A DNA stretch of 32,000 bases. Origin: Halogeometricum borinquense DSM 11551 (GTDB lineage: Archaea > Halobacteriota > Halobacteria > Halobacteriales > Haloferacaceae). The notes under the pieces were generated by a model. It saw nothing but the letters and a program-made list of their open reading frames with translations. It was not told the DNA's origin and ran no database searches. The stretch spans positions 2,760,001 to 2,792,000 of the forward strand of contig NC_014729.1 in the NCBI RefSeq assembly GCF_000172995.2, in the 5' to 3' direction. A program made the position numbers and the translations under genes. Positions 4,453 to 31,615 of the stretch are shown here, piece by piece. How positions within the stretch are numbered: the first letter of the stretch is position 1; every line of letters starts with the position of its first letter.

Positions 4453-4542
4453 CTTTCTACCTGATTGACAGCAACCCCATATAATTCCTCTCCGTTCGAG
4501 ACCGAACGTTTCTGTACGGACGAGGACAGTGCGTGAGCGCCG

Positions 4543-4926
4543 TTAGAACAGCGCAGAGAGAACGGCGAGGTCGTCGGCCGACGGCCACGTGTAGAGCGCC
4601 CACGCGCCGAACACGTAGGTCATGAGCGGGACTTCGAGGCCGAACGCCCACGGGACCACGAACGGCGTGAGGAGTGCCCCGACCATCGTCGGCGCGAGGT
4701 TCGCAACGACGACGACGACCACGGGCGTCCCAGCGGGGTAGTTGAGTTCGAGACGCGGTGGAACGAGTCGATCGACGAGATCCAACGGGCGGGTTGCCTC
4801 GATCCACGGCCACGCCACCGCAGCATGCGTGAGTTCGTGCGCGAGTACTGCGGGGAACATAACGAGCGCCCCGAGGAGATCGACGAGGCCGACATTCTCT
4901 GAATCCGTATCAGAGGTCGTCGTCAT
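4543..4926 (-). CDS. Small polytopic membrane protein with an HExxH motif (putative membrane-embedded zinc metallopeptidase); last gene of the long operon
   Basis: AHELTHAAV sits at the edge of a hydrophobic helix and there are about 4 TM segments. I chose the start at ATG 4926 because it overlaps the upstream stop (ATGA) and GGAGGTG lies 10 nt upstream. The track ORF extends to 4953. Confidence 0.7.
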   Translation of the reverse strand: MTTTSDTDSENVGLVDLLGALVMFPAVLAHELTHAAVAWPWIEATRPLDLVDRLVPPRLELNYPAGTPVVVVVVANLAPTMVGALLTPFVVPWAFGLEVPLMTYVFGAWALYTWPSADDLAVLSALF

Positions 4927-5282
4927 CGCGGACGAGCACCTCCGCCGTTCCATAAGCTAAACAGTGCAAGCGCCGCGCCGAACAGGATCGACATGAACGC
5001 TCCAATCTTGGCCGCAGGCGGGAGGAACGGCATGAGGAACCCGCCGATCAGGATCGAAATCACTGCGGGGAGATCAGCGCGACCCTCAGTGAGGATGTAG
5101 AGAATCGTGCCGATCCCGATCCCGAGCATGGCCGGCGCAACCGGCCCAAGGAGATCCATGAACGGCTTGACGAACCCCGCCCACGCGTCGCCCTCTTTCC
5201 ACGGATCGTCGTAGGGGCTGTCGTACTGTGCGACCGTACTCGAGAGAACCCACGCGACCTCCAAGAGAACCGAGGACGTCAC
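4923..5282 (-). CDS. Polytopic membrane protein (119 aa) ending NGGGARPR
   Basis: It has 3-4 hydrophobic helices. I chose the GTG start at 5282 because it overlaps the upstream stop (GTGA) and GGGGGTG lies 8 nt upstream. The longer track ORF (to 5375) would overlap the upstream gene by 97 nt. Confidence 0.7.
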   Translation of the reverse strand: MTSSVLLEVAWVLSSTVAQYDSPYDDPWKEGDAWAGFVKPFMDLLGPVAPAMLGIGIGTILYILTEGRADLPAVISILIGGFLMPFLPPAAKIGAFMSILFGAALALFSLWNGGGARPR

Positions 5283-5659
5283 CGCGGACGCACCCCCGAA
5301 CGCCCGGTGAACATGTAGATCACAAATAGACCCATTGACCACGTGAGTGGCGACGCGATCATAACCGCACCCCACGACGGAAGGCCCGCATTGACGAGCA
5401 TATCCGCTAAGGCGTATATCAATACGAACGACGAAACGACCTCGTCAGTACCGGAGATCGTCGCGCCGATAAACGAGGTATCGCTCGAGCCACGACTCGC
5501 TGAGTAGTCCTTGAGATCGCCTTTGCTCTGCGCGACGTCGTCTTGAACGCCCGTGTCCGGTTGCATCCCGAGCCAGTCAGCAGTTCCCGAGGCAGTCATG
5601 GCCCCACCGACGCCCGCTACGCAAACGATGAACAGGAGGATCGTCGCCGGGTGTCTCAT
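5279..5659 (-). CDS. Small secreted/membrane-anchored protein (126 aa)
   Basis: The N-terminal signal-like segment is MRHPATILLFIVCVAGVGGAMTASG, and there are C-terminal TM helices plus a GRSGVRPR tail. ATG 5659 overlaps the upstream stop (ATGA), with GGAGGTG 7 nt upstream. The N-terminal extension of the track ORF is Arg-rich junk. Confidence 0.7.
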   Translation of the reverse strand: MRHPATILLFIVCVAGVGGAMTASGTADWLGMQPDTGVQDDVAQSKGDLKDYSASRGSSDTSFIGATISGTDEVVSSFVLIYALADMLVNAGLPSWGAVMIASPLTWSMGLFVIYMFTGRSGVRPR

Positions 5660-9044: not shown

Positions 9045-9341
9045 TTAGAACCTCCGTCCAGTTTCGTTGATGGAGCGCCGAAACGAGATCAGTAAGGCTG
9101 CGAGTGCCGCTCCCCACAACGGCCAATACTCCCACAGGAGCCGATACCGTCGAACCGTCTCCTCGCCCCGGCTTGAATCGGCCATGCTGTTGCTCATGTT
9201 GAACAGCATGTGCTGCGGGCCGTCGAGGAACGACCACAACATAACGGCGAGGAACAGCACGCCGAACAGGAACAGGCCGAACCACGCGAAACTCGCATGG
9301 ACGGTGAGGTTCTCGTCGAGTTCACCGAACCAGTGAGTCAC
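9045..9341 (-). CDS. Small 2-TM membrane protein (98 aa)
   Basis: The GTG start overlaps the upstream stop (GTGA), with GGAGGTG 7 nt upstream. There are two hydrophobic helices. Confidence 0.75.
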   Translation of the reverse strand: MTHWFGELDENLTVHASFAWFGLFLFGVLFLAVMLWSFLDGPQHMLFNMSNSMADSSRGEETVRRYRLLWEYWPLWGAALAALLISFRRSINETGRRF

Positions 9342-12300
9342 CGATGGCCACCTCCGTATCCGGCGTTATCGTCGATGCCCGCAAGCGTCTCCTCGAAGGC
9401 AGCGTTGGCAGAATCGAGAGCGTCGTCAACCGCGGTGGAACGCTCAGCGCTCGCAAGCGTAGCGTCGAGCGCCTCTGTGGCGCTCGCGACGGGATTCACC
9501 CAGTCCTCTCCGTAGCCGACGAGCGGAGCGAACTGATCGATGCGCTCTTGCTCGTCGTCGTTGCTGTCGTCACGTCGGCGGCGATCGTCATCATCCCATG
9601 GACCACGAAGAGGGAGTCCCCCGTCTCCACCTCCACTCCCACCGCTGCTCGACGGAGGATACGACGGGCCACCACCACTGCCATCGCCACCCCCATCGCC
9701 GCCCGGCGGAGGATATGACGGACCCGGACCACCGCCACCGTCGTTACTATCACCGCCTGGCGGGGGATATGACGGGTCAGAGCCACCGCTGCCATCACCA
9801 CCCGACGGTGGATATGACGAGTCAGGACTACCGACACCACCGCTTGGTGGCAAATACCCCGAGCCGGGACCACCACTACCCGATCCACCGTAGGGTGGGA
9901 CGTCCGGCTCGCCACCGGTCGGAGCGCCACCGTAACCGCTCCCGACATCCGGATCAGGATAGCCGAGCGGGACGACGGGGGTAGGATCTGACGCGTCCGC
10001 GCCGTCTTTGTAGGCGTACTGTGAGGCGCGTGCACCGTCAGAATCTGAATCTGTGTCAGGAGACCTATCGGGCCCGTTGTAGGTATTCGTATCCGAGTCG
10101 GCAACTCGTGCTGTCGTGTCAGTATCGACATCGACAGCCCGTCCGGAGGGAAGACCCGCCTGACCTCGGGAGTCTGCGAGGAACGCCTGAGCCTCCTGGG
10201 GGAGATCAACATCGGGGATTTCCGGCGACGGTGGGTTCGGGTTTCTCAAGGTCGTGGTGCCGAACTCGTCTTCGAGATCGCCCCACGATCCGTAGTTTTC
10301 GTCCGGGAGCGACAGATCACCCCACGCGTCTTGCCACGAATCGGCCGCCGCTTTCGTCCCACGAGCCCGCCACCGAGTGATAGGATTGAGCGACTTGCTT
10401 TGCTGTTCGGCCATCCGTTCTGCGATCGTGCCGACGTCAACGACGTCTTTCGACCGCCATGTCTTCGGGGCGATCTCGCCCTCGCCGAACAGCCTCATTC
10501 CCCCTTCGATCTTCGCGTTTACCTGACTCTCAACGGGTTGGATTTTGACACCGTCGGCGGATCGGGTCGGGCCGTGGAGGTCGCCTGACCAATCTTTTTT
10601 CCCACGAGCACGGGAGCGGTCGTTTATATCGACCATGTGATCCCACCCATCCTCGGTCTTGACCTCGATTCCCCCTCGGCGCTGCATGGGACGGTCTTCG
10701 TACTTGCTGAGTATGTCGAAAAGTTCCTTCTGAGCCTTATCGGTATCACCAGTGTAGATGTCTATGTCATCGGGCGTACGGGCCTTCCCCGTCTGCATGA
10801 GTTGTGAGACACTTCCTCCGAGCTCCGAGTCGGTTGTTTTCAGCCACTCAGTGACTTCGGGAGCTGCCTCGTCGGGAATCTGTTGCGCGTTTCGAATCCC
10901 CTTCTCGGCCGTGGTGTCGGTGCCACCACTGACACGATCAACAACGGCATCTGTTCGAGAGCGGTCGCCGAGTCGCTCTGCGATTTCACGTCCTGCCTCG
11001 TATCGTTGCAGATCCGTCCCTTCTAGTTGGTTTCGGAGATTTGTGTCCCATATCGATGTCTCGATGGGCGAGGTTGGGGCAACCCCGCTTGAGTCCGGTC
11101 TCTTTGGAGGCCCTTGGAGATCGACATCCGGCGTTCCCACAGTCGGGCGGTGGTTGGTGACCCCGATTCGAGGAGTCGGGTTCGATCCTGGTAGCTTGGT
11201 TGTAAGGCCGCGGTAGGTCGTGACGTCGCCTCCATCTGGGACCTTCGCCGTCTCTACGCGTACCGGCATCTTTGACCCGATACCGACTTTTGTCGTGAGT
11301 CGCCCCACACCGAACCCAGTCAAGAGACCCAAACCAGCACCACCGACGAACTCAACGGGGCTAGATCGCGCTTCATTGACCATTGCTTCTCCCGCTTCCC
11401 GTCCGAACGCGGTCACGGTTTCACCAACAGCACCCGGCCCGTACTCTTCGACCGCATCGGGAGCGTTCTGTGCGACCTCGATACCCGTCTCGGCAGTTGT
11501 GATGTGCTGCGGAACGTTCAGAAAGTCAACTCCTGCCTTAGCAGCACCTTCGAGCAGTTGTTCCGGGACTCCTTCCTGCGAGTCAGGTACTCCGCCTTCA
11601 TCGGTTTCGATCGTCTTTTTGTAGTCATTAATGTCTTTAGCAACGCTCCTTACCTGCTGTTCTTGATCCTCAGAAAGGAGTCCTCCACTCTTCGTGAGGT
11701 CGTCACTGATATTCGTATTGAATTCAGCGTTGTTGACTGCCTCTCCCGTGTTTTCGGCCGAATTCTCTACACTTTCTTCTACTGCATTTCCAACGTTCGA
11801 GGCAGTCTCACCGACCGTATCCACACCACCACTGACAGAGTTTCCTACGTCACTCACGACGTCCGTGGCGGTATCAGTGGCCGAATCAATGCCACTGTCC
11901 ACGGAGTTGCCAACGTCATTCGTGACGTCAGAGGCAGTATCGGTTACTGTATCAACCCCCTCACCGACAGAATCTCCAACGCCGTTCACGACATCGGAGG
12001 CAGTATCGGTTACCGAGTCGATCCCGTCGTCAACAGAGTTTCCCACATCGTTCCCGATGTCTGAGGCGGTATCGGTGACTGAGTCGATACCATCGTCAAC
12101 AGAGCTGCCTACATCGTTTCCAATGTCTGAGGCGGTGTCGGTAACTGTGTCAACACCGGACTCCACCGCACTCCCAACATCGTCGAAGAATCCGCCACTG
12201 TCGCTGGACGATGAACTCGAGGAGGTTGGCGAGTCCAAGGACGAACCAGAGTGGTCTCGCCCCGCCTCTTGCGATGACCCTGACGAGCCGCCGATCCCGA

Positions 12301-12523
12301 CCGAGTCGGTCACGGAGTCAGCAGCGTCCGAGACGGTGTCGGTGATGCCGTCCCAGAACCCGCCACCGCCGCCCGAGTCGTTCGACGAGGACGAAGAGTG
12401 GGACGATCCCGAGGACCCCGACGAGCCGCTGCTCGAGGAACTACTCGACTGAGAGCCCGACGAACTACCGGAATCACCCGATTCGGATCCGGAATAGCCG
12501 GGGATGTTGTCTAAGAATCCCAT
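9338..12523 (-). CDS. Giant (1061 aa) low-complexity/repeat protein with poly-Ser/Gly tracts, 22-aa tandem repeats, a Gly-rich hydrophobic segment, a globular middle region and a Pro/Gly-rich SYPPxGG region
   Basis: A single uninterrupted ORF. The ATG directly abuts the upstream stop (TAGATG). Composition is extremely acidic, S/G/D/T-rich at the N-terminus. See the repeat features and findings. Confidence 0.9.
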   Translation of the reverse strand: MGFLDNIPGYSGSESGDSGSSSGSQSSSSSSSGSSGSSGSSHSSSSSNDSGGGGGFWDGITDTVSDAADSVTDSVGIGGSSGSSQEAGRDHSGSSLDSPTSSSSSSSDSGGFFDDVGSAVESGVDTVTDTASDIGNDVGSSVDDGIDSVTDTASDIGNDVGNSVDDGIDSVTDTASDVVNGVGDSVGEGVDTVTDTASDVTNDVGNSVDSGIDSATDTATDVVSDVGNSVSGGVDTVGETASNVGNAVEESVENSAENTGEAVNNAEFNTNISDDLTKSGGLLSEDQEQQVRSVAKDINDYKKTIETDEGGVPDSQEGVPEQLLEGAAKAGVDFLNVPQHITTAETGIEVAQNAPDAVEEYGPGAVGETVTAFGREAGEAMVNEARSSPVEFVGGAGLGLLTGFGVGRLTTKVGIGSKMPVRVETAKVPDGGDVTTYRGLTTKLPGSNPTPRIGVTNHRPTVGTPDVDLQGPPKRPDSSGVAPTSPIETSIWDTNLRNQLEGTDLQRYEAGREIAERLGDRSRTDAVVDRVSGGTDTTAEKGIRNAQQIPDEAAPEVTEWLKTTDSELGGSVSQLMQTGKARTPDDIDIYTGDTDKAQKELFDILSKYEDRPMQRRGGIEVKTEDGWDHMVDINDRSRARGKKDWSGDLHGPTRSADGVKIQPVESQVNAKIEGGMRLFGEGEIAPKTWRSKDVVDVGTIAERMAEQQSKSLNPITRWRARGTKAAADSWQDAWGDLSLPDENYGSWGDLEDEFGTTTLRNPNPPSPEIPDVDLPQEAQAFLADSRGQAGLPSGRAVDVDTDTTARVADSDTNTYNGPDRSPDTDSDSDGARASQYAYKDGADASDPTPVVPLGYPDPDVGSGYGGAPTGGEPDVPPYGGSGSGGPGSGYLPPSGGVGSPDSSYPPSGGDGSGGSDPSYPPPGGDSNDGGGGPGPSYPPPGGDGGGDGSGGGPSYPPSSSGGSGGGDGGLPLRGPWDDDDRRRRDDSNDDEQERIDQFAPLVGYGEDWVNPVASATEALDATLASAERSTAVDDALDSANAAFEETLAGIDDNAGYGGGHR
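9614..9961 (-). repeat. Pro/Gly-rich degenerate repeats (SYPPxGG-type motif, about 5 copies) near the C-terminus of the giant protein
   Basis: Protein stretch PPYGGSGSGGPGSGYLPPSGGVGSPDSSYPPSGGDGSGGSDPSYPPPGGDSNDGGGGPGPSYPPPGGDGGGDGSGGGPSYPPSSSGG. Confidence 0.8.
11750..12187 (-). repeat. About 6.5 tandem copies of a 66-nt (22-aa = 2 x 11-aa) repeat in the giant protein gene
   Basis: The units are DSVTDTASDIGNDVGSSVDDGI / DSVTDTASDIGNDVGNSVDDGI / DSVTDTASDVVNGVGDSVGEGV / DTVTDTASDVTNDVGNSVDSGI / DSATDTATDVVSDVGNSVSGGV / DTVGETASNVGNAVEESVENSA. The DNA copies are visibly similar but not identical. Confidence 0.9.
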
Positions 12524-20920: not shown

Positions 20921-21348
20921 TGTTCTGTGAACAGGATCGGCTTCTCCGACACTCCGTAGGCGACGAGCACCTCGCCGAGTTCGAGGAGTACGACGACGAC
21001 ACACCCCGTGACGACGAGCGGCGTGAACGCGTTGGCCGTCATCGAGGCGACGATCAACGCCAACACTGCCATCAATCCCGCTGCGGCGAGGCCGTTCTTA
21101 GCGACCCGCTCGAGATCCTCCGAAGTCGGCTCGTCCGGAAGGATCTGGGCTGCGAATCGGCTCGCGAGGATGTCGGCGACGCGGTCAGTCACTCGAGGTG
21201 GGGCAAGGAACTCACGCGGTTCCCGAGCGCCGCTCAGGAGACGGGAAACGACCCACCCGAGTGAGAGACCGAACGTGGCGATCAACACGTAGGCAACGGG
21301 ACCGGAGGGCGCTGCCACCGCGCCAGCCGTAGTCGGTACGCTCGGCAC
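20917..21348 (-). CDS. Membrane protein (143 aa, about 4 TM)
   Basis: The GTG start has GAGGTG 9 nt upstream. Hydrophobic helices are separated by a charged loop. Confidence 0.7.
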   Translation of the reverse strand: MPSVPTTAGAVAAPSGPVAYVLIATFGLSLGWVVSRLLSGAREPREFLAPPRVTDRVADILASRFAAQILPDEPTSEDLERVAKNGLAAAGLMAVLALIVASMTANAFTPLVVTGCVVVVLLELGEVLVAYGVSEKPILFTEQ

Positions 21349-21560
21349 TATGGGGCACCTCGGTTCGGGAGTAGTCGGAGAGTCATACGGTCGTGTAGTG
21401 GCTGCAACTACGCCCTAACCGTCTCCTCGCGGTTTCATAAACCACGGCGGATAACCTTATTCGAATAAGATTTGGTTTAAACAGTTTACTCCCGCTATCT
21501 GTTGTGTTGAATCTCAACATCTGCCAAACTCTTATCAATTCACATCGCAGAGAACCGCAT

Positions 21561-21743
21561 ATGCCGAAGATATTCAGAAACAACATGAATTGGCATCATG
21601 ATGGTCCTGGTGGTTGCAAAGTTGTTGATCCAGCAGGTGTCGATAATCACCTTGTTCACAACAAGGACTGGGGTGAAGCACTCGGTCTAATAGAGGATGA
21701 CGCTGGTGATCGGTGCGGCCAATGCAATTGGCCTGACGGATAG
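21561..21743 (+). CDS. Possible small Cys-containing protein (60 aa)
   Basis: The ATG lies within the track ORF 21504..21743, and there is a C...CxxC pattern (CKVV...CGQC). It sits in an AT-rich region. Support is weak. Confidence 0.3.
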   Translation: MPKIFRNNMNWHHDGPGGCKVVDPAGVDNHLVHNKDWGEALGLIEDDAGDRCGQCNWPDG

Positions 21744-21924
21744 TTTGGTTAGCGCTAAGTAGTCGTTGGCAATTAACGTCGAGCTATTCTGGTTTCATCG
21801 CAACTTTCTCTGCAAGATGTACTGAACAGTCTCCTCGATATAGACGAAGCTGTAGGAATACGATTCTTTCCGTGTTCAGCAGCTATCCTGTCATTTGAAA
21901 TATTTTTGTCCTATACAGATATAT

Positions 21925-22263
21925 ATGGGAAATAAAGACCTTAGAACTGCATTCAAGCAGTCGATCAATTGCATGGATGATGATGTTGATTGGGTAGCTA
22001 CGACAAACCTAGACGATCCGTCATCTGAAATGACCGGTTACGAGTCCTTCGATGTTGTACTCCATTTGAATACGACCGATACGCAGATTGCACGCGAGAT
22101 TGTGGGAGATGCTGGTGAGAAGATTAAAGACCGAGACGACTGGGACGGCAAGTTACTGTTTGAAACTATCTGGGAGGGGTCCCCAGAAATCGAGATGAGA
22201 GTACGGGTGTACTTGACGTCTGAGGCAAGACAGAACGGGAGTGGCGCTGAGTTATATTTCTAG
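21925..22263 (+). CDS. Hypothetical acidic protein (112 aa)
   Basis: ATG 21925 is preceded by an AT-rich TATA-like AAATATTT about 25 nt upstream. The track ORF starts at TTG 21895. Confidence 0.45.
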   Translation: MGNKDLRTAFKQSINCMDDDVDWVATTNLDDPSSEMTGYESFDVVLHLNTTDTQIAREIVGDAGEKIKDRDDWDGKLLFETIWEGSPEIEMRVRVYLTSEARQNGSGAELYF

Positions 22264-22467
22264 TAGCCGTTGATTCACCACGGATGCCTTTCAGGTTGTA
22301 ACTCTCCGTTTATCCGATGCCGTATGGTTTCTACGATTGTTTGAATACTTTCCCATTACCGACAACAACCGTTTATGACGACGTGATCACGGTGAACCTG
22401 GTGCTGCTATTGATGCTAAACGTTTGTCGTACTTCTTGAACTGATTTGATTTGCATTAAGCACATTG

Positions 22468-22488
22468 CCGACTTGTTATACAAGTCGG
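22468..22488. promoter_or_regulatory. Perfect 21-nt palindrome CCGACTTGT-TAT-ACAAGTCGG, 89 nt upstream of the small recombinase gene
   Basis: The 9-bp arms are exactly complementary around a 3-nt centre. This geometry is typical of a tyrosine-recombinase core site or an operator. Confidence 0.4.
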
Positions 22489-22576
22489 AAGCGAACCCCC
22501 TGTATCACCCACACTTGCACCTCGATCACGTCGGTGTCCGGTGCCTCTAAGTGAAATGTTGTTATAAGAAATCTTC

Positions 22577-23182
22577 ATGCGATTGGAAGCGACCGCGAAA
22601 GAGGATCAGTACAAGATCTGGATGACTGATTCCGAACTCAAACAGTTAGAGCGCGTGGCCGCAAATCAACGCGACTACTTGATCATTCGACTTGGGGGGC
22701 GAGTCGGTCTCCGCGCCTTCGAGATTCCACAGATTTGCCCGAAGCACGTGAAGCGGACCGACGATGGCGAGCACTATCGCCTGCGCGTGCCCGAAGGAAA
22801 GGACACGACCGGGAACGGTGGAAAGCCTCGGGACGCCTATCTGCCGAAAGACGTCGAAGGAGACATACACCGGTTTCAGAACGCCGAGGACATCGGACGG
22901 AATCAGCCACTTGTTGACCTCACTGAGCGCGGTGTTCGCAATGTCGTGAAGCGCACGGCCACCCGTGCAGCTGAAGAGACCGGCGACGAGGACTTTCGAC
23001 ACGTCAGTAGCCACGATCTCCGGCGTCGGTTCGCTCAACGCCTCTTGGTTGACCGGCAGATGAACCCGCGAGTCGTCATGGCTGTTGGCGGGTGGGACTC
23101 CTTTCAGGCAATCGAACCCTACCTCAACGCACCGACGCCCGAGGTCGTCAATCAGGCCTTCGAAGAGGCAGAGCTGTCGTAA
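22577..23182 (+). CDS. Minimal tyrosine recombinase (201 aa, catalytic domain only)
   Basis: Catalytic signature: R in GGRVGLRAFE, K in GGKPRDAYLP, HxxR in SSHDLRRRFA, W in GGWDS and Y in IEPYL. There is no N-terminal SAM-like core-binding domain. Confidence 0.85.
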   Translation: MRLEATAKEDQYKIWMTDSELKQLERVAANQRDYLIIRLGGRVGLRAFEIPQICPKHVKRTDDGEHYRLRVPEGKDTTGNGGKPRDAYLPKDVEGDIHRFQNAEDIGRNQPLVDLTERGVRNVVKRTATRAAEETGDEDFRHVSSHDLRRRFAQRLLVDRQMNPRVVMAVGGWDSFQAIEPYLNAPTPEVVNQAFEEAELS

Positions 23183-23411
23183 CGTCGTTGAGAAGTAAAT
23201 CTTGGTGGCTCTGTTGGAAGTTCCAGAAATTGATGTATCTCGCGTGCTGAATTTGAATATCTATCCTCCTGAACCAGCTGTTAGAATCACTAAGAGAACT
23301 CACATGTAGGAGTTCTAATTGTTCCCGATCCACCTTCTACTCGCCGTATAATCTGGTTTGACCGTCTGTATAGGCTAAGTTTGATATGTTGCCATACCAT
23401 AATATACAATC

Positions 23412-23636
23412 ATGTCTAAAGAGCGAGCAAAATCCCGAATCGAGGCTGAATTTTCGGATAGGAGTGAAATCCCAGACGCCAGCGGTAGCAAGAGCATAGA
23501 TGTGCGTATCCCGAATTCAGGCTTGGATATTGATGACGTTCAGGAAATCGACTACGTAAACGACGTACTTGAGGAAGAAGACGAGTTCCGAGTCTATGTT
23601 TCGGCGGACTCTAACGTGGGCGTCTGGACGACCTAA
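23412..23636 (+). CDS. Hypothetical acidic protein (74 aa)
   Basis: An ATG ORF in the AT-rich island with an acidic C-terminal half. I recognise no motif. Confidence 0.4.
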   Translation: MSKERAKSRIEAEFSDRSEIPDASGSKSIDVRIPNSGLDIDDVQEIDYVNDVLEEEDEFRVYVSADSNVGVWTT

Positions 23637-23866
23637 GTCAGTATCGACCAGCCATCCGCGCTACTGCAAAGCTTACCGTCTGTATCTACCAATCTATTCA
23701 TCCCAGACTGTGATTGGTCAATCAACGATGCACGCTCTGTATTCAGCACACTCACGAGTCCCATCAAGTTTTGAGGATTTCAACAGAGCCATCCTAATCT
23801 ATTCGCGGTCGGTGTCACGGAATATCTCAGGTGCCGCGTCTTCAATATCGAGGACGTTGAACATGG

Positions 23867-24067
23867 TTACGCCCGGAGAATCGCCGCTTCGTCAACCATT
23901 CCGTCGAGATGATCCTCAAGCGCCTCAGCATTCTTGTCGTCGAGTCCGACGAGCACGATCCCGGTGAGATCCGTCTCGGCGAGTTTGTCAAGGAGTTCCT
24001 CCTGATCGGTTGTTGCCTCCGTGACGAGTCGTGTTTGTATGGGTGTGCCGTCGTTCTCGGTACTCAT
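23867..24067 (-). CDS. Hypothetical acidic protein (66 aa)
   Basis: ATG 24067 overlaps the upstream stop (ATGA). The track ORF starts at 24082. Confidence 0.45.
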   Translation of the reverse strand: MSTENDGTPIQTRLVTEATTDQEELLDKLAETDLTGIVLVGLDDKNAEALEDHLDGMVDEAAILRA

Positions 24068-24264
24068 GCTCTCACCGTCCAAGAGTCCCGCACGCGTCCG
24101 CCCGTTCCGTGTATATTGATCTCGTCGCCGGGGGCCGCCCGACGCCGGGCTGCATCGACCGCGTTCTGCTGCGTGCGATGAGAACTTGTTTTTCTACCGT
24201 TCGCTTCGACTTTCCAGTCGTAGGGCTCGCCGCGCGCGGTCGGCATGATGTTGTACCGCGTCAT
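24064..24264 (-). CDS. DUF2188-like small protein (66 aa)
   Basis: WKVEANGRKTSSHRTQQNAVDAARRRAAPGDEINIHGTGGRVRDS fits the DUF2188 pattern as I remember it (W.V...g......t...Ai..Ar..A......l.IHg.dG.ir). Confidence 0.55.
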   Translation of the reverse strand: MTRYNIMPTARGEPYDWKVEANGRKTSSHRTQQNAVDAARRRAAPGDEINIHGTGGRVRDSWTVRA

Positions 24265-24370
24265 GAGACTCTCTCGACGCCGTTCATCCTAATCACCCCA
24301 TGTTTAACCTTCTGCGATAGGTTCCAGGGGCAGAAATTTAGGCAAGAGAGCGTGTCGGATAGTGGTACAC

Positions 24371-24655
24371 ATGAGTCTCCGAAGCTTCCTCAACAATGCA
24401 CTCGGATTTGGTGGCAGTAGTCCGCAGTATACGCCCGGCGAGGTGACCTGGTCCGTTGCATACGACGTTGACGATTACGATGGGCCAGGTTGGTATCTCA
24501 CTGCAAAAGGTCCGGAGGTACACGAGACGGATGGCCCCTTCCGCTCGAAAGGAGCGGCAATAGATGCTGCACGGGAAAGGGGATCCGAAGGAGACGAACT
24601 CAGAACCTGGGACAAAGACGCCTTAGAACCAGAAATAACAACGATAAGGCGTTGA
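24371..24655 (+). CDS. Second, divergent DUF2188-like small protein (94 aa)
   Basis: GWYLTAKGPEVHETDGPFRSKGAAIDAARERGSEGDELRTWDKD has the same pattern with a degenerate C-terminal half. I preferred ATG 24371 over the track GTG 24362. Confidence 0.5.
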   Translation: MSLRSFLNNALGFGGSSPQYTPGEVTWSVAYDVDDYDGPGWYLTAKGPEVHETDGPFRSKGAAIDAARERGSEGDELRTWDKDALEPEITTIRR

Positions 24656-24682
24656 GTTACTCTATCTAGTCCACCGATTTAG

Positions 24683-25921
24683 TTAGTCCCACCAGCTGCT
24701 ACGCTGCTCCTCGTAGCTTGGATCCTCGAAAACTGGCGGGATGTTGCCTGGTGCTAAGTTATGAGCTAGTCCCCAGCCGACGTACCATCCTCGAGCATCT
24801 ACATCTGTTTCCGACTCGATCGTTATTGTTGCTTGAGTCAAGTACTCAAACTCCCCATCATTGTCAAAGTCACGGGCTGTCCCGCCATCACCGCAGACAG
24901 TATATTCTCCCTCGCACCTATCTTGAGCGAATGTTATGACTATGTCGGCTTTCCAGGGGTCCTGTACTCGTGTGAAGGAAACGTCCGAAGGGACTTCTTT
25001 GGCCTTCCACTCTTCAAAATAGGTGACGGCGTGGTTTACTTGCGACTTGGTCTCTGTCAAACTGTTCTTCGAAACATTAGAATAATCGACATACACGGAG
25101 AGATTCGTACTCCGCCACGCGAGGCTTTGGTTCTCGACACTGGGAGCGTCGAAAGTCGGATTTTTGCACCCGTGAGAACCTGACCAGTACGACATCACCC
25201 AGTGTGGTTTTTCACAGTGAGTAATTCCGAGAATATGGCCGAACTCATGGATGATCGTATTCTTGACTGTACGGTAGTTATTCGACTTGTTGTAGAGAAT
25301 TTGGACGTTTTCAGGTGGACGGGCACTGGTTGTCCTGTTTAGCCGATGAGCGCAACCAGAGGCCCCCTGTGGACAGTTAATCGTATTATTGTACCAGACG
25401 ATTATGTCGGGGTTTTCAGCATCTGGTCTGAGTACGAAATCGACGGAATATACACCATACTCCGGATGATCTTCCCAATAATTGAGTGATTCAGCCACGG
25501 CACCAGTCAAATTCCGGGACGGTGCGGCTTGATTTCGTATTCCCACGACGACAGTCTCCTTATTCCACGGGTTCTGAACCGTCTGATCAGCCGTTTCTGA
25601 GACGGTCGTGTTAGTCGGTCCTGATACCGTTGATCCACTACCTCCAGTGTCTGGCCCCGTGAGTACGCCAACTCCCGCAAATAGAACCGTGAAGAGAATA
25701 TAGGCACCAAATCCGAATTTGATGATCTCCCACAAACCAGAGAGCGGATTGTTCCGGAACTGGCTCAAGTAATATTTCGCCCAAGAGGGGTTAGTGATCC
25801 ATCTGATAACCGGATAGCTTACGGTCCAACCACACCGATGGCATTTGAGAAATTTGTCGTGGGATAGTCTCCAGACCCTTTGTCCACACTTCGGACAAGT
25901 CCGACCTTCGCTGCTCGGCAT
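24683..25921 (-). CDS. Membrane-tethered metzincin-type zinc metalloprotease with an N-terminal cytoplasmic zinc ribbon
   Basis: The zinc ribbon is CPKCGQ...x14...CHRCG. A single TM follows (GFGAYILFTVLFAGVGVL). The ectodomain has HEFGHILGITH (HExxHxxGxxH), a downstream Met-turn-like VMSY, and many N-x-S/T sequons. Confidence 0.85.
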   Translation of the reverse strand: MPSSEGRTCPKCGQRVWRLSHDKFLKCHRCGWTVSYPVIRWITNPSWAKYYLSQFRNNPLSGLWEIIKFGFGAYILFTVLFAGVGVLTGPDTGGSGSTVSGPTNTTVSETADQTVQNPWNKETVVVGIRNQAAPSRNLTGAVAESLNYWEDHPEYGVYSVDFVLRPDAENPDIIVWYNNTINCPQGASGCAHRLNRTTSARPPENVQILYNKSNNYRTVKNTIIHEFGHILGITHCEKPHWVMSYWSGSHGCKNPTFDAPSVENQSLAWRSTNLSVYVDYSNVSKNSLTETKSQVNHAVTYFEEWKAKEVPSDVSFTRVQDPWKADIVITFAQDRCEGEYTVCGDGGTARDFDNDGEFEYLTQATITIESETDVDARGWYVGWGLAHNLAPGNIPPVFEDPSYEEQRSSWWD

Positions 25922-25977
25922 TTGAGCAGACTACTTTCACATACTGTGATAATTACTTCGACCAAGAAGCTCAACAA

Positions 25978-26283
25978 TTACTCGTCAGGTTCAAGCTCTT
26001 CGGCCTTAATCTCGCCTTCAAGATACGCTAATCCCTTTTCAGTAATTCGATAATAACGTTTAGTCTCGTCAGTAAGCTCTAACAAGCCTATTTTTTCCAA
26101 GTCACCTATCCGACGCGAAAAGGTACTCCGACTCTTCTCTGAATAACCGCGTACTTCCGCAATATTGTGATGAACGGTTCCCGGCTGAAGCTCTACCCGT
26201 TCCCCCGATATAGACTCCATTTCCCGGAAAAACTCCAAGATGGCGTCATCTACTTCGTTCATCCACGGTACCCGGGGGCGCAT
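25978..26283 (-). CDS. phiH1-repressor-like winged-helix transcription regulator
   Basis: The N-terminal PWMNEVDDAILEFF, followed by NIAEVRGYSEKSRSTFSRRIGDLEKIGLLE...YYRITEKG, is typical of the haloarchaeal virus/plasmid wHTH repressor family. Confidence 0.85.
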   Translation of the reverse strand: MRPRVPWMNEVDDAILEFFREMESISGERVELQPGTVHHNIAEVRGYSEKSRSTFSRRIGDLEKIGLLELTDETKRYYRITEKGLAYLEGEIKAEELEPDE

Positions 26284-26463
26284 GTCCCCTTATCTTTGGT
26301 TCCGATGTATAGCCGCACCGAAAAGTCTGCTGACTGAATCATATATCCTATGTATGAGTAATATTGTGCAAACATATAAATAGGACGGACATTACGAGAG
26401 TTATAACGGAAGCACTTCGCGGACCCGTCGCTCTTCGGCGGTGGGTCCACTTGTCAGAACAAA

Positions 26464-26493
26464 GCGGACCCCGTGTTAGGGGCACGGGTCCGC
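26464..26493. other. Strong GC hairpin (11 bp with one bulge, 7-nt loop) in the repressor/integrase-operon intergenic region
   Basis: GCGGACCCCGTG-TTAGGGG-CACGGGTCCGC. A related imperfect GGACCC...GGGTCC hairpin lies about 40 nt upstream. Confidence 0.4.
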
Positions 26494-26578
26494 GTGGACT
26501 TCCGTGACCTACCACGAAAGCCATGTACAACGACTCGATATGGGGGCTTGAAACCCTCGAACGAACGACAGTATCGGT

Positions 26579-26649
26579 GACTACTTTCACCGCCTGCGAT
26601 CCCGAAATAACGGGGGGCGGTGCGGATTTACGACTACTTTCACTTTCAC
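26579..26649 (+). promoter_or_regulatory. Direct 12-nt repeats GACTACTTTCAC (26579-26590 and 26632-26643, the second followed by TTTCAC); candidate operator
   Basis: This is an exact 12-mer duplication 53 nt apart, 50-120 nt upstream of the integrase-operon start and next to a divergent repressor gene. Confidence 0.35.
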
Positions 26650-26702
26650 TCCCCATACAAGGCTCGACTCTTTTATGGGGGAAATCATCGGCATCGACTG
26701 CG

Positions 26703-26969
26703 ATGCCTAAGACGCTGACGACGATTGAGCTTGAGGATGATGTGGACCGCTGGCGGTACGTGTGTCCGCGTGGTCACCGCGATTGGGAGCCGACGAACAA
26801 CCACTTTTGGTGTGCGGCATGCGCTCGGACATATCACGACGACATCGATCCGGAGTTTCAGGAGCTGAGGGATCGTCGTGACGGCGAGCCACTGTCGCGT
26901 GATGAAGTGCGGTTGATGACGCCCGCGGGGCCGTACCGCGAGGTCTACAAGGGCGGTGGTCACGCGTGA
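26703..26969 (+). CDS. Small zinc-binding protein (88 aa), first gene of the integrase operon
   Basis: CPRGH...x14...CAAC gives Cys/His ligands. I chose internal ATG 26703 because the upstream part of the track ORF 26523.. reads as non-halophilic junk. Confidence 0.65.
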   Translation: MPKTLTTIELEDDVDRWRYVCPRGHRDWEPTNNHFWCAACARTYHDDIDPEFQELRDRRDGEPLSRDEVRLMTPAGPYREVYKGGGHA

Positions 26970-27139
26970 CCCATCACGTCAGCTGCCACGAGTGCGATTT
27001 CGACGCACTGATTGAGGGGGCGTTCGCCACCGAGCGCGCTATCGAACGCCACCAAGAAGAGACCGGTCATAGGGTCAGTCAGGAGTACGTTGCTCCTAGG
27101 GAAACGACACGAGTCGCCACAGACGGAGGAGATCACTGA
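26966..27139 (+). CDS. Small C2H2-like zinc-finger protein (57 aa)
   Basis: It is not in the track (GTG start, under 60 aa). There is a GTGA overlap with the upstream stop. The protein reads VTHHVSCHECDFD...ERHQEETGH (CxxC...HxxxxxH). Confidence 0.45.
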   Translation: MTHHVSCHECDFDALIEGAFATERAIERHQEETGHRVSQEYVAPRETTRVATDGGDH

Positions 27140-27270
27140 TGTCGTGCGTTGAATGTGGTTCTCCAGCGCGGGGGCTTCGGTGTCAGACCTGCCAACGCAC
27201 GCGTGATCTTGAGGAATTCTGGGAATCGATCAAGTTCGACGATGACCCCGAGGAGGAGTCTGATGAGTGA
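27139..27270 (+). CDS. Small zinc-ribbon protein (43 aa) with an acidic tail
   Basis: It is not in the track. MSCVECGSPARGLRCQTCQ has CxxC-x8-CxxC. The ATG overlaps the upstream TGA by 1 nt. Confidence 0.5.
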   Translation: MSCVECGSPARGLRCQTCQRTRDLEEFWESIKFDDDPEEESDE

Positions 27271-27871
27271 CGGTACTGCTCAGGGCGAATTAGATTGGCC
27301 ACCGGAGTTTGAGCGAACACCCGCTGACGAACGCCGATCCTACCCGCACGGATTCGAGGTGACACGGAGTGAGGCATTCGATTCGGTTCTGAAACAGCTC
27401 CGGAGGATGGACGCGAAGAACGTCCGACTCGATACCGACGCAGAGCATCAAAAACGGAACCCAAACAAGCCCTACGCGAACTCATCGTTTGATGACCCTG
27501 GTGTAGTCGTTCGCTTCGAACACGATGGTGAGCAGTACGCGATGCCGATGGACAAGTGGGACAACCCGAGGGACAACGCTCGGGCTATCGCTCTCACACT
27601 AAAAGCGAAACGCGCCCTCACGCGCTACGGTGTCGAGACCATCGAATCGGAGTTCTCAGCTCACCAACTCCCGCCTGGAGACGACCGAGAGAATGTCGTT
27701 GTCTCCGGGGCGATCGAGGAACCGCACGAAATTCTCGGAGTCGCATCAGACGCACCAGAGAGTGTTGTGAAGGCCGCTGCGCGGACTCGGAAGAAAGAGA
27801 CGCACCCAGACAATGGGGGCGACGTAAGTGAGTTCAAGCGTGTCGTGAACGCCGAGGAGGAGTTGCTGTGA
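27263..27871 (+). CDS. J-domain (DnaJ-like, HPD motif) protein with a conserved-looking prophage-type N-terminal domain
   Basis: The C-terminal PHEILGVASDAPESVVKAAARTRKKETHPDNGGDVSEFKRVVNAEEEL is a J domain with HPD. I chose ATG 27263 (8-nt overlap with the upstream gene) over the track start 27149. Confidence 0.85.
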   Translation: MSDGTAQGELDWPPEFERTPADERRSYPHGFEVTRSEAFDSVLKQLRRMDAKNVRLDTDAEHQKRNPNKPYANSSFDDPGVVVRFEHDGEQYAMPMDKWDNPRDNARAIALTLKAKRALTRYGVETIESEFSAHQLPPGDDRENVVVSGAIEEPHEILGVASDAPESVVKAAARTRKKETHPDNGGDVSEFKRVVNAEEELL

Positions 27872-27902
27872 TGCTCGCAGATAACCACGGTGAGGTGCGA
27901 GA

Positions 27903-28931
27903 ATGAAGACACCCTCCGACCTGACGCCTCGAGAAGCAGTTCGTCGATATCTCGACCGACGGAGTACTGAACTCTCCGAGTCGTCGGTTCGTACCTACCG
28001 GTACCGTCTGAAACTATGGGTTGAGTGGTGCGAGGATGAGAACATCGAGCGGGTTGAAGACCTGACTGGCTGGACCTTCGAGCAGTTCGAGGCGTTCCGT
28101 TCAGGACAGGGTATTGCCTCCCCCACGCTCCACGGCGAGATGGAGACGCTGAAAGGTCACATAGAGTACCTTGAACGCATCGAGGCCGTTGATGACGGAC
28201 TCGCTGACAAGGTCCATGTGCCGGACGTTCCGGATTCGGAAATGTCGCGCGATACGATGCTCCGGCCGGAGGACGCAGAGGACCTGATTCGTTACTACCG
28301 TACGCACGATAACGTCTACGGAACTCGGTTCCACGCTGCTCTCGAACTCGCGTTTCACACTGGCGCTCGACTCGGTGCGCTTCGCGGAATCGATCTCCGC
28401 GATTACCACTCGGACGAGCAATTCGTTGAGTTCGTTCATCGGCCGGAGACTAATACGCCGTTGAAGAATCAGCGAAGTGGCGAACGCTCTGTTTCGCTAC
28501 TGTCCGAGGTCTGTGACGCCATCGACGAGTTCATCGCTCACAATCGGCCGTCGGGTCACGACGAGTTCGGACGGTCGCCGCTGTTTCTCACGTATCACGA
28601 GAACCGAGTCTCTAAGAACGCGTTTAGAGCGTGGATATACCGTGCGACGCAGCCCTGTGTGGCGGGTACGTGCCCACACAACTACGACCGTGAGACGTGC
28701 GACTTCCGTCGTCACTCGACCGCAAGCCAGTGTCCGTCCTCAAGGGCACCACATCACGTTCGCACTGGTTCGATTACGTGGCATCGAGACCGGGGATTTC
28801 CTCCGGAGGTGACCGCTGAACGCGTGAATGCGTCTCAGGAGGTTATCGAGAAGCACTACGACAAGGCTTCCCAGCGAGAGCGGATGGAGTTGCGCCGTCG
28901 CCCTCACCTGGGGAAGCTCGAAATCGAGTGA
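27903..28931 (+). CDS. Tyrosine integrase (342 aa) with an N-terminal SAM-like core-binding domain and a Cys-rich insertion
   Basis: Catalytic R in HTGARLGALRGIDL, HxxR in PHHVRTGSITW, and HRD...EKHY (Tyr). The four-Cys insertion is CVAGTCPHNYDRETCDFRRHSTASQC. GGTGAGGTG lies upstream of the ATG. Confidence 0.92.
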   Translation: MKTPSDLTPREAVRRYLDRRSTELSESSVRTYRYRLKLWVEWCEDENIERVEDLTGWTFEQFEAFRSGQGIASPTLHGEMETLKGHIEYLERIEAVDDGLADKVHVPDVPDSEMSRDTMLRPEDAEDLIRYYRTHDNVYGTRFHAALELAFHTGARLGALRGIDLRDYHSDEQFVEFVHRPETNTPLKNQRSGERSVSLLSEVCDAIDEFIAHNRPSGHDEFGRSPLFLTYHENRVSKNAFRAWIYRATQPCVAGTCPHNYDRETCDFRRHSTASQCPSSRAPHHVRTGSITWHRDRGFPPEVTAERVNASQEVIEKHYDKASQRERMELRRRPHLGKLEIE

Positions 28932-28949
28932 GTCTGCTCCAGCAGACTC
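28930..28949 (+). terminator. Perfect 9-bp hairpin GAGTCTGCT-CC-AGCAGACTC overlapping the integrase stop codon
   Basis: The arms are exactly complementary with a 2-nt loop. It could be a terminator or a recombinase-binding palindrome. Confidence 0.45.
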
Positions 28950-29011
28950 ACCCAGTGAAGTGAGCCACACATCCCACTGTTTGGCTCACTCAACAGCATG
29001 AGCCAGAATTC

Positions 29012-29070
29012 CACGTCAGACATCACGACTCACCAATCATGATGAGCATCACGTCAGACTTCATGACTCA
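29012..29070. repeat. Two 21-nt near-identical direct repeats, CACGTCAGAC(A/T)TCA(C/T)GACTCA, 38 nt apart
   Basis: The copies are at 29012-29032 and 29050-29070, with 19/21 identity, just downstream of the integrase gene. Confidence 0.5.
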
Positions 29071-29280
29071 ACGGAGAGAGGTACCGGAGTGTAAAGAAAA
29101 TCAGGGTGGTTGCGGGCCGGGCGGTCCCACTATTTCTGTCCGAACGAAGTGAGGATGAAATCGTCACGAGCGGCTGGTTTAAACTAGCGAGTGCAGCGAA
29201 TCGGAACGAGTGAGAGGTCATATCCGGGCAGTTCCACTGCTACGCGAACGGTACCAACTCACCGCACGAAAAGTTGAACC

Positions 29281-30645: not shown

Positions 30646-31332
30646 TCAATCGTTCATATGCGCTTGCTCGAACGGATACGGCGGTAGGCGAAGTTCGTCC
30701 AGTCCGGGGAGGTGTTTGACGTTAAAGACGACTTTCATGTCATCAGTGAGGGGTGCACCCATACAGGAGAGTCGGATGTCGCTGTCGAGCATCGTCGAAG
30801 GGAGGATATGATCACCGGGCGTATCCATCTCGCCTTCAAAGACGGCGACAGCGCAGTTCGCGCACGCTCCACCACGGCAGGCGTACGGCCACGCATAGCC
30901 GCGGTTCTCGGCCGCTTCGAGAAGTGTCTCGTTCTCCTGAACGAGGAACTGTCCGTAGTCTTCGTGTGGGAGATTTGCCGCGGCCGCCTTCTCAAACAGG
31001 TCGTCGTCACCGAGATCCCACCCGTGGTCGTCGAGTACTTCGTAGTTCAGATACTCGATTTTCGATCTCAGTTCGTCCTCGTCTTCGTCGCCGTCATCCG
31101 GGACGCTTGCTGAGGAGGACGAAGAAGGCGTGTCACCCGAAACTTCGCCGTTGACGGCCTCAATCGGATGGCCCTCCTTGATCATCTCGTACGCCGAGCG
31201 GACGCGATTAAACTCCGCTGCGGAACCCCCTTGGTCGGGGTGCACCTCGATGACCCGGCGTCTGAACGCTCGATCAACCTCCGCGTCGTCCGCATCCGGT
31301 TCGATCCCGAGAATCTCGAACGGAGAATCCAC
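30646..31332 (-). CDS. J-domain / plant-type [2Fe-2S] ferredoxin fusion protein
   Basis: The J domain is FEILGIEPDADDAEVDRAFRRRVIEVHPDQGG (HPD). The ferredoxin cluster motif is CRGGACANC (Cx4Cx2C) plus LSCMG. I preferred GTG 31332 because an ATTTAC element lies about 28 nt upstream. The maximal ORF (TTG) extends to 31476. Confidence 0.85.
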   Translation of the reverse strand: MDSPFEILGIEPDADDAEVDRAFRRRVIEVHPDQGGSAAEFNRVRSAYEMIKEGHPIEAVNGEVSGDTPSSSSSASVPDDGDEDEDELRSKIEYLNYEVLDDHGWDLGDDDLFEKAAAANLPHEDYGQFLVQENETLLEAAENRGYAWPYACRGGACANCAVAVFEGEMDTPGDHILPSTMLDSDIRLSCMGAPLTDDMKVVFNVKHLPGLDELRLPPYPFEQAHMND

Positions 31333-31615
31333 GCCGACGAGTACGGGATGAGAACGTAAATCCTCTCCCTTCTCGGTAACACGAACGACGCGTACACTAC
31401 AGCATTGACGGCGATTTGTACGTTCGACTGCACAGCCAGCCACCAGCGAGTGAGTGGGGGCTTGCAGACGGAACAAGGGAGAATTTCGGAGACCGTCAGA
31501 CGCGCGTCAGACGCTCCGATGACGCCGCTCGTGAGTGATTATCAGAATCGTGAATCGCTGGATTAACTATAACTATTCTCGGCGTAGATTGCCAGAAAGT
31601 ATCAGAGGTCAACCC

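Follow-up and report, generated by a model that had tools for sequence, protein, structure and literature searches.

The 32,000-nucleotide (nt) stretch of the Halogeometricum borinquense DSM 11551 genome analysed here (hereafter the window; contig NC_014729.1, with coordinates counted from its first letter) carries at 26703–28931 a chain of small genes that ends in a tyrosine integrase gene. We interpret this locus as the integrase operon of an integrated haloarchaeal element that is built on the plan of the virus SNJ2 and bears a portable module encoding a J-domain protein; we give this interpretation a probability of roughly 60%. Homology and structure comparisons support the module organisation, the integrase type, the fold of the leader, the fold and HPD motif of the J-domain protein, and the mosaic nature of the gene content.

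Five co-directional open reading frames (ORFs) on the plus strand were found where a first-pass annotation of this DNA had placed them: A88 (26703–26969; the first mini-ORF in its annotated form of 88 amino acids [aa]), B57 (26966–27139), C43 (27139–27270), J202 (27263–27871) and Int342 (27903–28931), the last encoding an SNJ2-type tyrosine integrase of 342 aa. The GTG start of B57 overlaps the stop codon of A88 (GTGA), B57 and C43 overlap by 1 nt (TGATG), and C43 and J202 overlap by 8 nt (ATGAGTGA). The earlier suggestion that all of the genes are translationally coupled is supported by these A-B-C-J overlaps but does not extend to the integrase gene, which follows J202 after a 31-nt gap without overlap and is preceded by a Shine–Dalgarno-like GGTGAGGTG at 27889 inside the spacer. 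A sequence scan of the plus strand between 26703 and 29000 detected neither TATA-like motifs nor stretches of at least five T. Together with the A-B-C-J overlaps, this absence fits a single transcription unit, and the arrangement from A to the integrase gene is consistent with one. Public protein databases already list A88, C43, J202 and Int342 for H. borinquense, under labels that include ‘hypothetical protein’, ‘J domain-containing protein’ and ‘tyrosine-type recombinase/integrase’, while B57 is uncalled in every public annotation source for strain DSM 11551.

Int342 shares 61% identity with the integrase of LSV-48N, 47% with that of Humcor2, 38% with that of HRPV-9 and 37% with Int-SNJ2 (across 95% of the query, E = 2e-63), and it matched the Pfam family Phage_integrase above threshold. 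In an alignment of eight integrases, the catalytic residues R156, K188, H284, R287 and Y319 were invariant. Four cysteines, C252, C257, C266 and C277 (PC-x4-CPH-x6-C-x10-CPSSR), were likewise invariant in the eight SNJ2-type integrases, Int-SNJ2 included, which bears out the previously noted resemblance of the Cys-rich insertion to the SNJ2 type. This four-Cys segment (28656–28733, plus strand; integrase residues 252–277) lies just before the catalytic H-x-x-R (box II). We infer that it is a hallmark of SNJ2-type integrases, and the invariance of the four residues suggests that they may form a structural metal site; the word ‘cysteine’ is absent from the SNJ2 integrase paper (PMC5861418).

Upstream of the operon, DNA similarity and a covariance model delimited a structured 5′ untranslated leader of ca. 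118 nt (26404–26522, plus strand), in which an outer stem (ACGGAAG at 26406 with CTTCCGT at 26499) encloses two GC-rich hairpins. The sequence at 26400–26576 showed ca. 75% DNA identity to HRPV-9 and to four haloarchaeal plasmids, whose flanking DNA diverges, and each of these matches has a leftward winged-helix gene on one side and a rightward small-gene operon on the other. In SNJ2, the leader sequence is located between the mapped transcription starts and the ATG of orf3; these starts, 114 and 132 nt upstream of orf3 (PMC5861418, PMC10123103), fit the leader as a 5′ untranslated region (5′UTR). The covariance model (R1), which was built from seven copies and run on the loci collected in this analysis (designated by L numbers), identified 12 leader copies, all on the operon strand and all upstream of the operon, including those of SNJ2, HRPV-9, Humcor2, Halfgib1, H. 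rufum, Halorubrum tebenquichense and Halorubellus salinus. The window leader scored 117.7 bits and that of SNJ2 93.6 bits, and the positions of copies in the collected loci include L060 1841–1956 (minus strand), L037 2501–2623, L056 1503–1626, L012 3434–3554, L062 3569–3680 and L061 3158–3250.

In the leader alignment (A9), which was fitted to the covariance model, 96% of cells were paired and compensatory double changes occurred in 14 of the 34 pairs; none of 500 shuffles reached the observed value, and register-shifted controls gave 0–2. The outer stem also covaries in plain MAFFT alignments (ACGGAAG/CTTCCGT vs. ACGAAGG/CCTTCGT vs. ACGCGAG/CTCGCGT), and several leader positions form G-U pairs on the plus strand only. 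In the Humcor2 leader, the outer stem and the second inner hairpin are retained, whereas the first is absent. No copy was detected by R1 in the LSV-48N stretch searched, and no Rfam family matched the leader. Scans of viral and metagenome collections for the exact core motifs were set aside, as they yielded almost only chance matches in unrelated GC-rich DNA. The leader itself is already known: the available passages of one report describe a conserved 5′UTR in Tebi-SV1, Tebi-PV1, LN27-SSV and SNJ2 and contain no covariation analysis of it (PMC13612827). The additions made here are more members and the covariation counts.

A divergent gene immediately upstream of the operon (25978–26283, minus strand) encodes a 101-aa winged-helix protein that is homologous to the SNJ2 repressor Orf4 (39% identity, E = 3e-17) and matches PHROG 2440, ‘transcriptional regulator’ (E = 6e-23). 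A divergent winged-helix gene also adjoins the operon in HRPV-9, L038–L040, L056, L059, L008 and L012. Orf4 is a phiH1-like repressor that was shown experimentally to silence the SNJ2 integrase operon during lysogeny (PMC10123103), and by analogy the product of 25978–26283 is probably a phiH1/Orf4-type repressor of the integrase operon, a role demonstrated for SNJ2 only. A TATA box (ATATAAAT, 26374–26381, plus strand) was located ca. 25–30 nt upstream of the conserved leader, and an inverted-repeat search identified an imperfect palindrome (TATGTATGAGTAATATTGTGCAAACATA, 26349–26376) that abuts it. The Orf4-dependent palindrome of SNJ2 likewise adjoins the TATA box (PMC10123103), and this parallel makes the palindrome at 26349–26376 a candidate repressor operator. 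The GGACCC/GGGTCC palindromes were also considered as operators and were rejected in favour of RNA structure, as their stems covary and contain G-U pairs on one strand only; mutation of the 5′UTR palindrome in SNJ2 left Orf4 repression unaffected (PMC10123103). A 12-mer, GACTACTTTCAC, occurs three times around this region, once at the 3′ side of the repressor gene region (25929) and twice between the leader and the ATG at 26703 (26579 and 26632).

The small genes carried in front of the integrase gene vary among elements. The integrases of H. rufum and Halogeometricum sp. CBA1124 (L056 and L058) are 88% identical to Int342, and the gene order in both is a PadR-fusion gene, a 45-aa C homologue, J, four ORFs of 73, 48, 56 and 96 aa, and the integrase gene. 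The mini-ORFs had been expected to be conserved upstream of orthologous integrases; in these close relatives the expectation holds for C43 and J but not for A and B, which are absent. Farther away, it holds for A and B, which adjoin a 40%-identical integrase in the metagenomic contig L059, but not for C and J, which are absent there. Other elements have unrelated genes in this slot (LSV-48N, Humcor2 and SNJ2) or keep A only (HRPV-9), and the slot elsewhere holds PadR-like and assorted Cys-rich proteins, two ‘CxxC motif proteins’ (Humcor2) or a Zn-ribbon protein (LSV-48N). Judged from these gene orders, the small-gene set is mosaic, being composed of an A-B and a C-J module that recur independently. 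Short Cys-rich genes chained to an SNJ2-type integrase gene are, in themselves, an already annotated theme.

The SNJ2 integrase gene is co-transcribed with orf3 (MarR-like) and orf2 (coiled-coil), with overlaps of 8 and 20 bp (PMC5861418), which agrees with the statement in the first-pass annotation that small accessory ORFs accompany this integrase. Both genes strongly boost integration and are dispensable for excision, and a chaperone-like (prefoldin-like) role was proposed for Orf2 (PMC5861418). Homologues of Orf2 and Orf3 were found in only five of ca. 39 SNJ2-related elements (PMC5861418); therefore, they do not define the wider family. Pfam searches detected no winged-helix or coiled-coil protein in the window operon, where similarity to Orf3 is confined to the first 11 residues of ORF A.

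J202 consists of an N-terminal domain (N-domain; residues ca. 1–133), a linker and a minimal three-helix J domain (residues ca. 152–202; nt 27716–27868, plus strand) with the HPD motif H181-P182-D183 at 27803–27811 (plus strand). The AlphaFold2 (AF2) model of J202 had a mean predicted local distance difference test score (pLDDT) of 85.8, with values of 93–97 in the J-domain segment. This segment superposed on the DnaK-bound J domain of Escherichia coli DnaJ (5nro_B) with a root-mean-square deviation (rmsd) of 1.8 Å over 54 residues, and Foldseek gave it a probability of 1.0 and an rmsd of 1.7–1.8 Å to 5nro_B and 4j7z, with many other J domains also matched. Conservation of HPD, on which the earlier reading had been made to depend, was observed in 38 haloarchaeal homologues, in which H and D are invariant and a few have A or S instead of P, and in the bacterial phage members; the protein of Halorubrum virus BJ1 has G at the P position. 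Because of the fold match of the AF2 model and the invariant H and D, the modelled J domain was confirmed as genuine despite its sub-threshold Pfam match; many J202 homologues have a precomputed match to PF00226 (DnaJ).

The N-domain, a confidently modelled alpha/beta domain, is more conserved across archaea and bacteria than the J domain, with W12-P13, D97, N105 and R117 invariant in archaeal elements and bacterial phages alike. Sequence searches of Pfam, NCBIfam and PDB gave no match to the N-domain, and nothing significant was returned for it by Foldseek (N-domain or full model against PDB and BFVD). The best structural matches were RaiA/HPF-like and double-stranded RNA-binding domain-like (E ≥ 0.08, template modelling scores of 0.4–0.5), and an RNA-binding fold is not claimed. 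Over its full length, J202 matches PHROG 9210 (E = 2.1e-57; residues 3–202 on profile positions 3–200 of 204), a family listed as function unknown. At least 247 haloarchaeal homologues exist, and a profile of the N-domain recovered 2,851 representatives of 50%-identity clusters, mostly of ca. 200 aa with a C-terminal HPD segment; these representatives carry no taxonomy, and bacterial membership was taken from annotated phage genomes. Homologues with 95%–100% coverage occur in Halorubrum virus BJ1 (44% identity), in HCTV-2 (36%) and in phages of Synechococcus, Microcystis, Microbacterium, Gordonia, Mycobacterium and Erythrobacter, where they are often annotated ‘DnaJ-like chaperonin’. The first-pass statement that this N-domain is fused to J domains in bacterial prophages is thus matched by the same full-length architecture in bacteriophage genomes.

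J domains stimulate the ATPase of Hsp70 through the HPD motif, and Halobacteria encode DnaK, DnaJ and GrpE. A second J-domain gene, probably of the host, lies at 30646–31476 (minus strand), ca. 1.7 kb from the J gene of the element; its product is a fusion of a J domain with a 2Fe-2S ferredoxin (Pfam DnaJ, E = 7e-10; Fer2, E = 5e-12), which indicates that the host uses J-domain proteins.

The genomic distribution of J homologues bears directly on what J202 might do. Among 22 genomic J loci, for which a downstream flank of up to 6 kb (shorter at contig ends) was inspected, an SNJ2-type integrase gene lies 20–580 nt downstream of J in five (L006, L008, L010, L012 and L015), and no integrase homologue was found in the flank of the remaining 17. 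No integrase was present among the called genes around the three closest metagenomic homologues examined (P0003, P0006 and P0009; seven contigs, 67%–72% identity), or at the two plasmid J loci examined. The integrase-free metagenomic and plasmid J genes belong to long operons of small genes, one of which (L032) ends with a DUF7845 protein (4010–5674) similar to that at 73–1689 in the window. In bacteriophages, the J genes adjoin genes for Bet, recombinase, exonuclease, MazG and HNH proteins with no adjacent integrase gene, and in HCTV-2 a ParB-like nuclease/methylase gene lies downstream of J within the early operon at the left end. Conversely, the operons of LSV-48N, Humcor2, HRPV-9, SNJ2 and L059 contain the integrase gene and no J gene. 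Four elements, representing three genera (the window, L008, L012 and L056), have J placed after the conserved leader and before the integrase gene. At the Halorubellus salinus locus (L012 5327–6004), the ORF overlapping the start of J contains two CxxCxGxG motifs (CVRCRGSG and CALCSGVG); a DnaJ-type zinc finger was considered for this ORF and dropped, Pfam giving only a weak match to sigma-70 region 4.

The presence of J in tailed viruses, plasmids and phages without an adjacent integrase gene weakens an integrase-specific role, and the distribution of the family argues against the first-pass proposal that J202 recruits DnaK for the integration/excision complex. In a fuller form of that proposal, J202 and the A, B and C proteins would be dedicated integrase accessories in place of Orf2/Orf3, with DnaK folding the Cys-rich integrase or assembling and disassembling the integrase–DNA complex. 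The position of J directly upstream of the integrase gene in the five loci named above and in the window, and its presence in the same operon in H. rufum and CBA1124, would be expected from such a role, as would the need for SNJ2 Orf2/Orf3 in efficient integration and the chaperone-like role proposed for Orf2 (PMC5861418); the conserved four-Cys motif could also make folding of the integrase demanding. Against this stand the 17 of 22 flanks and the closest metagenomic relatives lacking an integrase, the tailed viruses and phages whose J genes have no integrase gene beside them, the five integrase operons without J, and the four ORFs that separate J from the integrase gene in H. rufum. On balance, we regard a dedicated accessory function as unlikely.

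The distribution is better accommodated by J as a portable early-gene module that serves a client common to mobile elements of both domains of life, with the integrase operon being the place where small haloarchaeal elements keep genes needed at the lysogeny switch. According to this interpretation, for which repression by the winged-helix protein at a palindrome beside the TATA box, co-transcription and induction after DNA damage are taken from the SNJ2 experiments, the operon would be repressed in lysogeny and expressed as a single transcript upon induction or when the element enters a new cell. J202 would then act as a virus-borne class-C J-domain protein, its HPD-bearing J domain stimulating the ATPase of host DnaK, as J-domain biochemistry would predict, and its conserved N-domain selecting the client. 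Given where J homologues occur, the integrase would be a less likely client than some general component of start-up, for example a complex for replication or recombination, or a host factor. The weakest step concerns the A, B and C proteins, which might be small, presumably metal-binding accessory factors that bind DNA or protein and occupy the position of Orf3/Orf2.

A different use of DnaK is conceivable, in which J202 acts as a decoy or modulator that titrates or redirects the host chaperone, perturbing, for example, the stress response. One report describes Rki of phage RB43 as the first characterised phage-encoded J-domain protein, which acts on host regulation through DnaK, via sigma32 (PMC3486835). 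J202 has a minimal J domain of three helices, lacks G/F and substrate-binding domains, and belongs to a family that is widespread in phages, features that would suit a decoy. However, the conservation of the N-domain suggests a specific partner in both domains of life rather than a host-specific regulator. Archaea are not known to have sigma32, and Rki reportedly has an N-terminal J domain followed by an unrelated C-terminal domain, an architecture that differs from that of J202. A decoy function therefore seems very improbable.

Several observations weigh against our preferred interpretation of an SNJ2-type integrase operon with a portable J module. The adjacency of J and integrase genes in 5 of 22 loci and in the window could reflect a functional link. 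PF00226 scored J202 at 22.3 bits, below its gathering score of 27.8, and the J domain comprises helices I–III without helix IV. As the N-domain yielded no informative fold match, the client is a guess. The host dnaK gene lies outside the window, and the presence of DnaK in the host is assumed from its general occurrence in Halobacteria. B57 and C43 are confined to one genus, and the coding signature of B57 is weak. Finally, the ends of the element and its attachment site were not found in the window, and the element may be a decayed remnant.

The extent of the first gene requires revision. The leader closes with an invariant GCCATG, whose ATG (26523) opens a frame that runs uninterrupted into A88 and gives a 148-aa long form (26523–26969, plus strand); this ATG is the positional homologue of the annotated start codon of SNJ2 orf3. 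From this ATG, the frame of 14 codons (MYxxxxxGLE[T/S]P..) is kept in seven elements, with variation largely at third positions, and the same long layout occurs in HRPV-9 ORF4 (133 aa) and in L059 (147 aa). A88 itself corresponds to a conserved Cys/His domain (CPRGH...CAAC) that matches PHROG 36874 and 18310 (E of ca. 1–2e-31), shares 59% identity with HRPV-9 ORF4, and falls at positions 67–142 of 152 in the PHROG 36874 profile. Stand-alone A88 homologues of ca. 85 aa occur on plasmids of four other genera, where an integrase gene is not always nearby. The long form is opposed by the 45-codon linker, which shows seven non-synonymous and no synonymous differences from L059, and by a TTTTAT motif ca. 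30 nt upstream of 26703. With moderate confidence, we consider the 148-aa protein the likelier primary product, and internal initiation at 26703 to give the 88-aa form is possible. The ORF reported for the first gene thus exists, but its start is probably 180 nt farther upstream.

The first ORFs of such operons are otherwise unrelated, being MarR-like in SNJ2, Cys/His in the window and Zn ribbon in Halorubrum tebenquichense, yet they share these first ca. 14 codons (window 26523–26564; L060 1846–1805, minus strand). Within them, GGGGnTTGAAAnCCCC can form a hairpin, and the conserved feature might be the peptide, an RNA structure or both. According to PMC13612827, the leader region contains no conserved ORF that could be found.

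The mini-proteins had been described as zinc-binding. Suitable Cys/His spacing is present in them, but all of their Pfam matches are sub-threshold, and metal binding by A, B and C is inferred from the residue patterns. C43 has a CxxC-x8-CxxC motif and an acidic tail (RefSeq WP_275039854.1). It is 72%–74% identical to the 45-aa ORF at the same position in H. rufum and CBA1124, where the 8-nt overlap with the J gene is identical, and its substitutions by codon position (7/3/19) provide a clear coding signature. B57 (C-x2-C...H-x5-H, C2H2-like; a weak sub-threshold match to DUF7542) has a single homologue family, a 66-aa protein of another H. borinquense strain and L059 with 81%–83% identity, and its substitutions (9/4/12) give a modest coding signal. 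A search of 5.8 billion proteins returned only genus-level homologues of B57 and C43, those of C43 only in Halogeometricum, and a comparison with plasmids returned none for either. When A88, B57 and C43 were compared by tblastn with the 22 J loci, one stray A88 match was obtained.

These data leave some room for the operon having fewer genes, with B57, and perhaps also the 60-codon extension of A, not being real coding sequence. Such a reduction would agree with the lack of B57 in public annotations of this strain, the restriction of its one homologue family to a single species with modest third-position bias, and the purely non-synonymous changes in the long-A linker. Yet the B57 frame remains open, at 81%–83% identity, in a second element, although the 3′ end of B57 and the downstream integrase differ there. 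In each of the two elements the start of B57 overlaps the A stop codon, and three elements, among them HRPV-9 (59% identity), maintain the long A frame. We therefore consider it doubtful that these frames are non-coding.

Downstream of the integrase gene, the elements of H. rufum and CBA1124 share a conserved non-coding segment with the window (28932–29240, plus strand); the alignment holds to ca. 29240 and then diverges, so the element junction is probably located there. An attachment site is expected within 28932–29240, and attP lies ca. 55–65 nt after the integrase gene in Humcor2, Halfgib1 and Harhisp1. The segment contains a repeat pair, GCCGGGCGGTCCCA (29116–29129) and TCCGGGCAGTTCCA (29223–29236), present as exact 14-mers in H. 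rufum; two copies of CACGTCAGAC(A/T)TCA(C/T)GACTCA (29012–29033 and 29050–29071); an inverted repeat, GTGAGCCA...TGGCTCAC, at 28960–28989; and a hairpin at 28930–28949. These repeats are candidate integrase-binding or att sequences. No tRNA gene and no convincing direct repeats flanking the element were found in the window, and its other end may lie beyond the window.

The operon lies in a low-GC stretch (ca. 21000–29000) that also holds an integrase fragment and a metalloprotease gene. The former is a 201-aa tyrosine recombinase ORF (22577–23182, plus strand; Pfam Phage_integrase, E = 6e-9) that might represent either a Xer-like gene or what is left of another element. The latter (24683–25921, minus strand) encodes a 412-aa protein in which a zinc ribbon at the N terminus is combined with a matrixin-like (M10) metalloprotease domain. 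A homologue with 26% identity is encoded just downstream of the integrase gene in the Halorubrum tebenquichense element (L008 8165–9088, minus strand), and the metalloprotease may be cargo of this element family. In the left 21 kb, a tape-measure-like ORF of 1,060 aa (9338–12523) and an eCIS-core-domain ORF (2908–4452) suggest a second or larger virus-like region. The DUF7845 protein at 73–1689 (plus strand) also carries a helix-turn-helix domain and matches PHROG 3288 (E = 4e-110).

The lysogeny/replication switch of haloarchaeal temperate elements is known in detail for one virus, SNJ2, and the present comparison describes a shared chassis of repressor, operator, structured leader and integrase that bears interchangeable gene modules. 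The covariation of the leader adds evidence for the recently proposed regulatory 5′UTR of integrase operons. The chassis is known, and both the Cys-rich mini-genes and the J family were already annotated; the residence of J in integrase operons appears unreported, as no report of it was found in the literature searched. If J202 works with haloarchaeal DnaK, archaeal mobile elements would be exploiting the bacterial-type Hsp70 that their hosts acquired, and J202 would offer a handle on a large uncharacterised family of phage co-chaperones. A bolder proposal, which we put forward as speculation with the odds against it, is that J202, possibly with C43 as a partner, is the first recognised Hsp70-hijacking device of an archaeal virus, placed in a lysogeny-switch operon to bring DnaK to the integrase synapse or a replication initiator, and representing an uncharacterised family (ca. 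2,850 clusters) with a client shared by both domains of life.

Compared with SNJ2, a pleolipovirus of Natrinema sp. J7-1, the window locus has a homologous integrase with the same Cys and catalytic residues, a homologous divergent repressor, a homologous structured 5′UTR (ca. 115–130 nt) followed by the same start context and N-terminal peptide on the first ORF, and short overlapping genes preceding the integrase gene. Unlike SNJ2, with its MarR-like Orf3 and coiled-coil Orf2, the window has three Cys/His mini-proteins and a J-domain protein, and its integrase gene does not overlap the preceding gene. SNJ2 is inserted in a tRNA-Met gene (PMC5861418), whereas neither a tRNA gene nor an att site was found in the window. 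The same integrase family is shared with Humcor2, HRPV-9, Halfgib1, LSV-48N, Tebi-SV1 and Tebi-PV1 (pleolipoviruses and spindle- or lemon-shaped haloviruses), and the same leader is present in Humcor2, HRPV-9 and Halfgib1 according to the covariance model and in Tebi-SV1 and Tebi-PV1 according to PMC13612827. In Humcor2, the two annotated ‘CxxC motif proteins’ overlap each other and the integrase gene; in HRPV-9, ORF4 is homologous to ORF A of the window; and LSV-48N instead encodes a 189-aa Zn-ribbon-containing protein. The window operon differs from those of all these published genomes in having a J-domain gene. J202 itself resembles the viral members of PHROG 9210 (BJ1 ORF5, HCTV-2 gp5 and proteins of Microbacterium, Gordonia and Synechococcus phages), with which it shares 28%–44% identity across 95%–100% of the protein and a layout of a ca. 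130-aa N-domain, an LP linker and a C-terminal J domain with HPD. Unlike the gene in the window, these viral genes are located in the early, replication or recombination modules of tailed viruses. In exploiting the host Hsp70 cycle, the element would resemble RB43 with its Rki protein and lambda with its P/DnaK–DnaJ system, although lambda uses the host DnaJ and encodes none itself.

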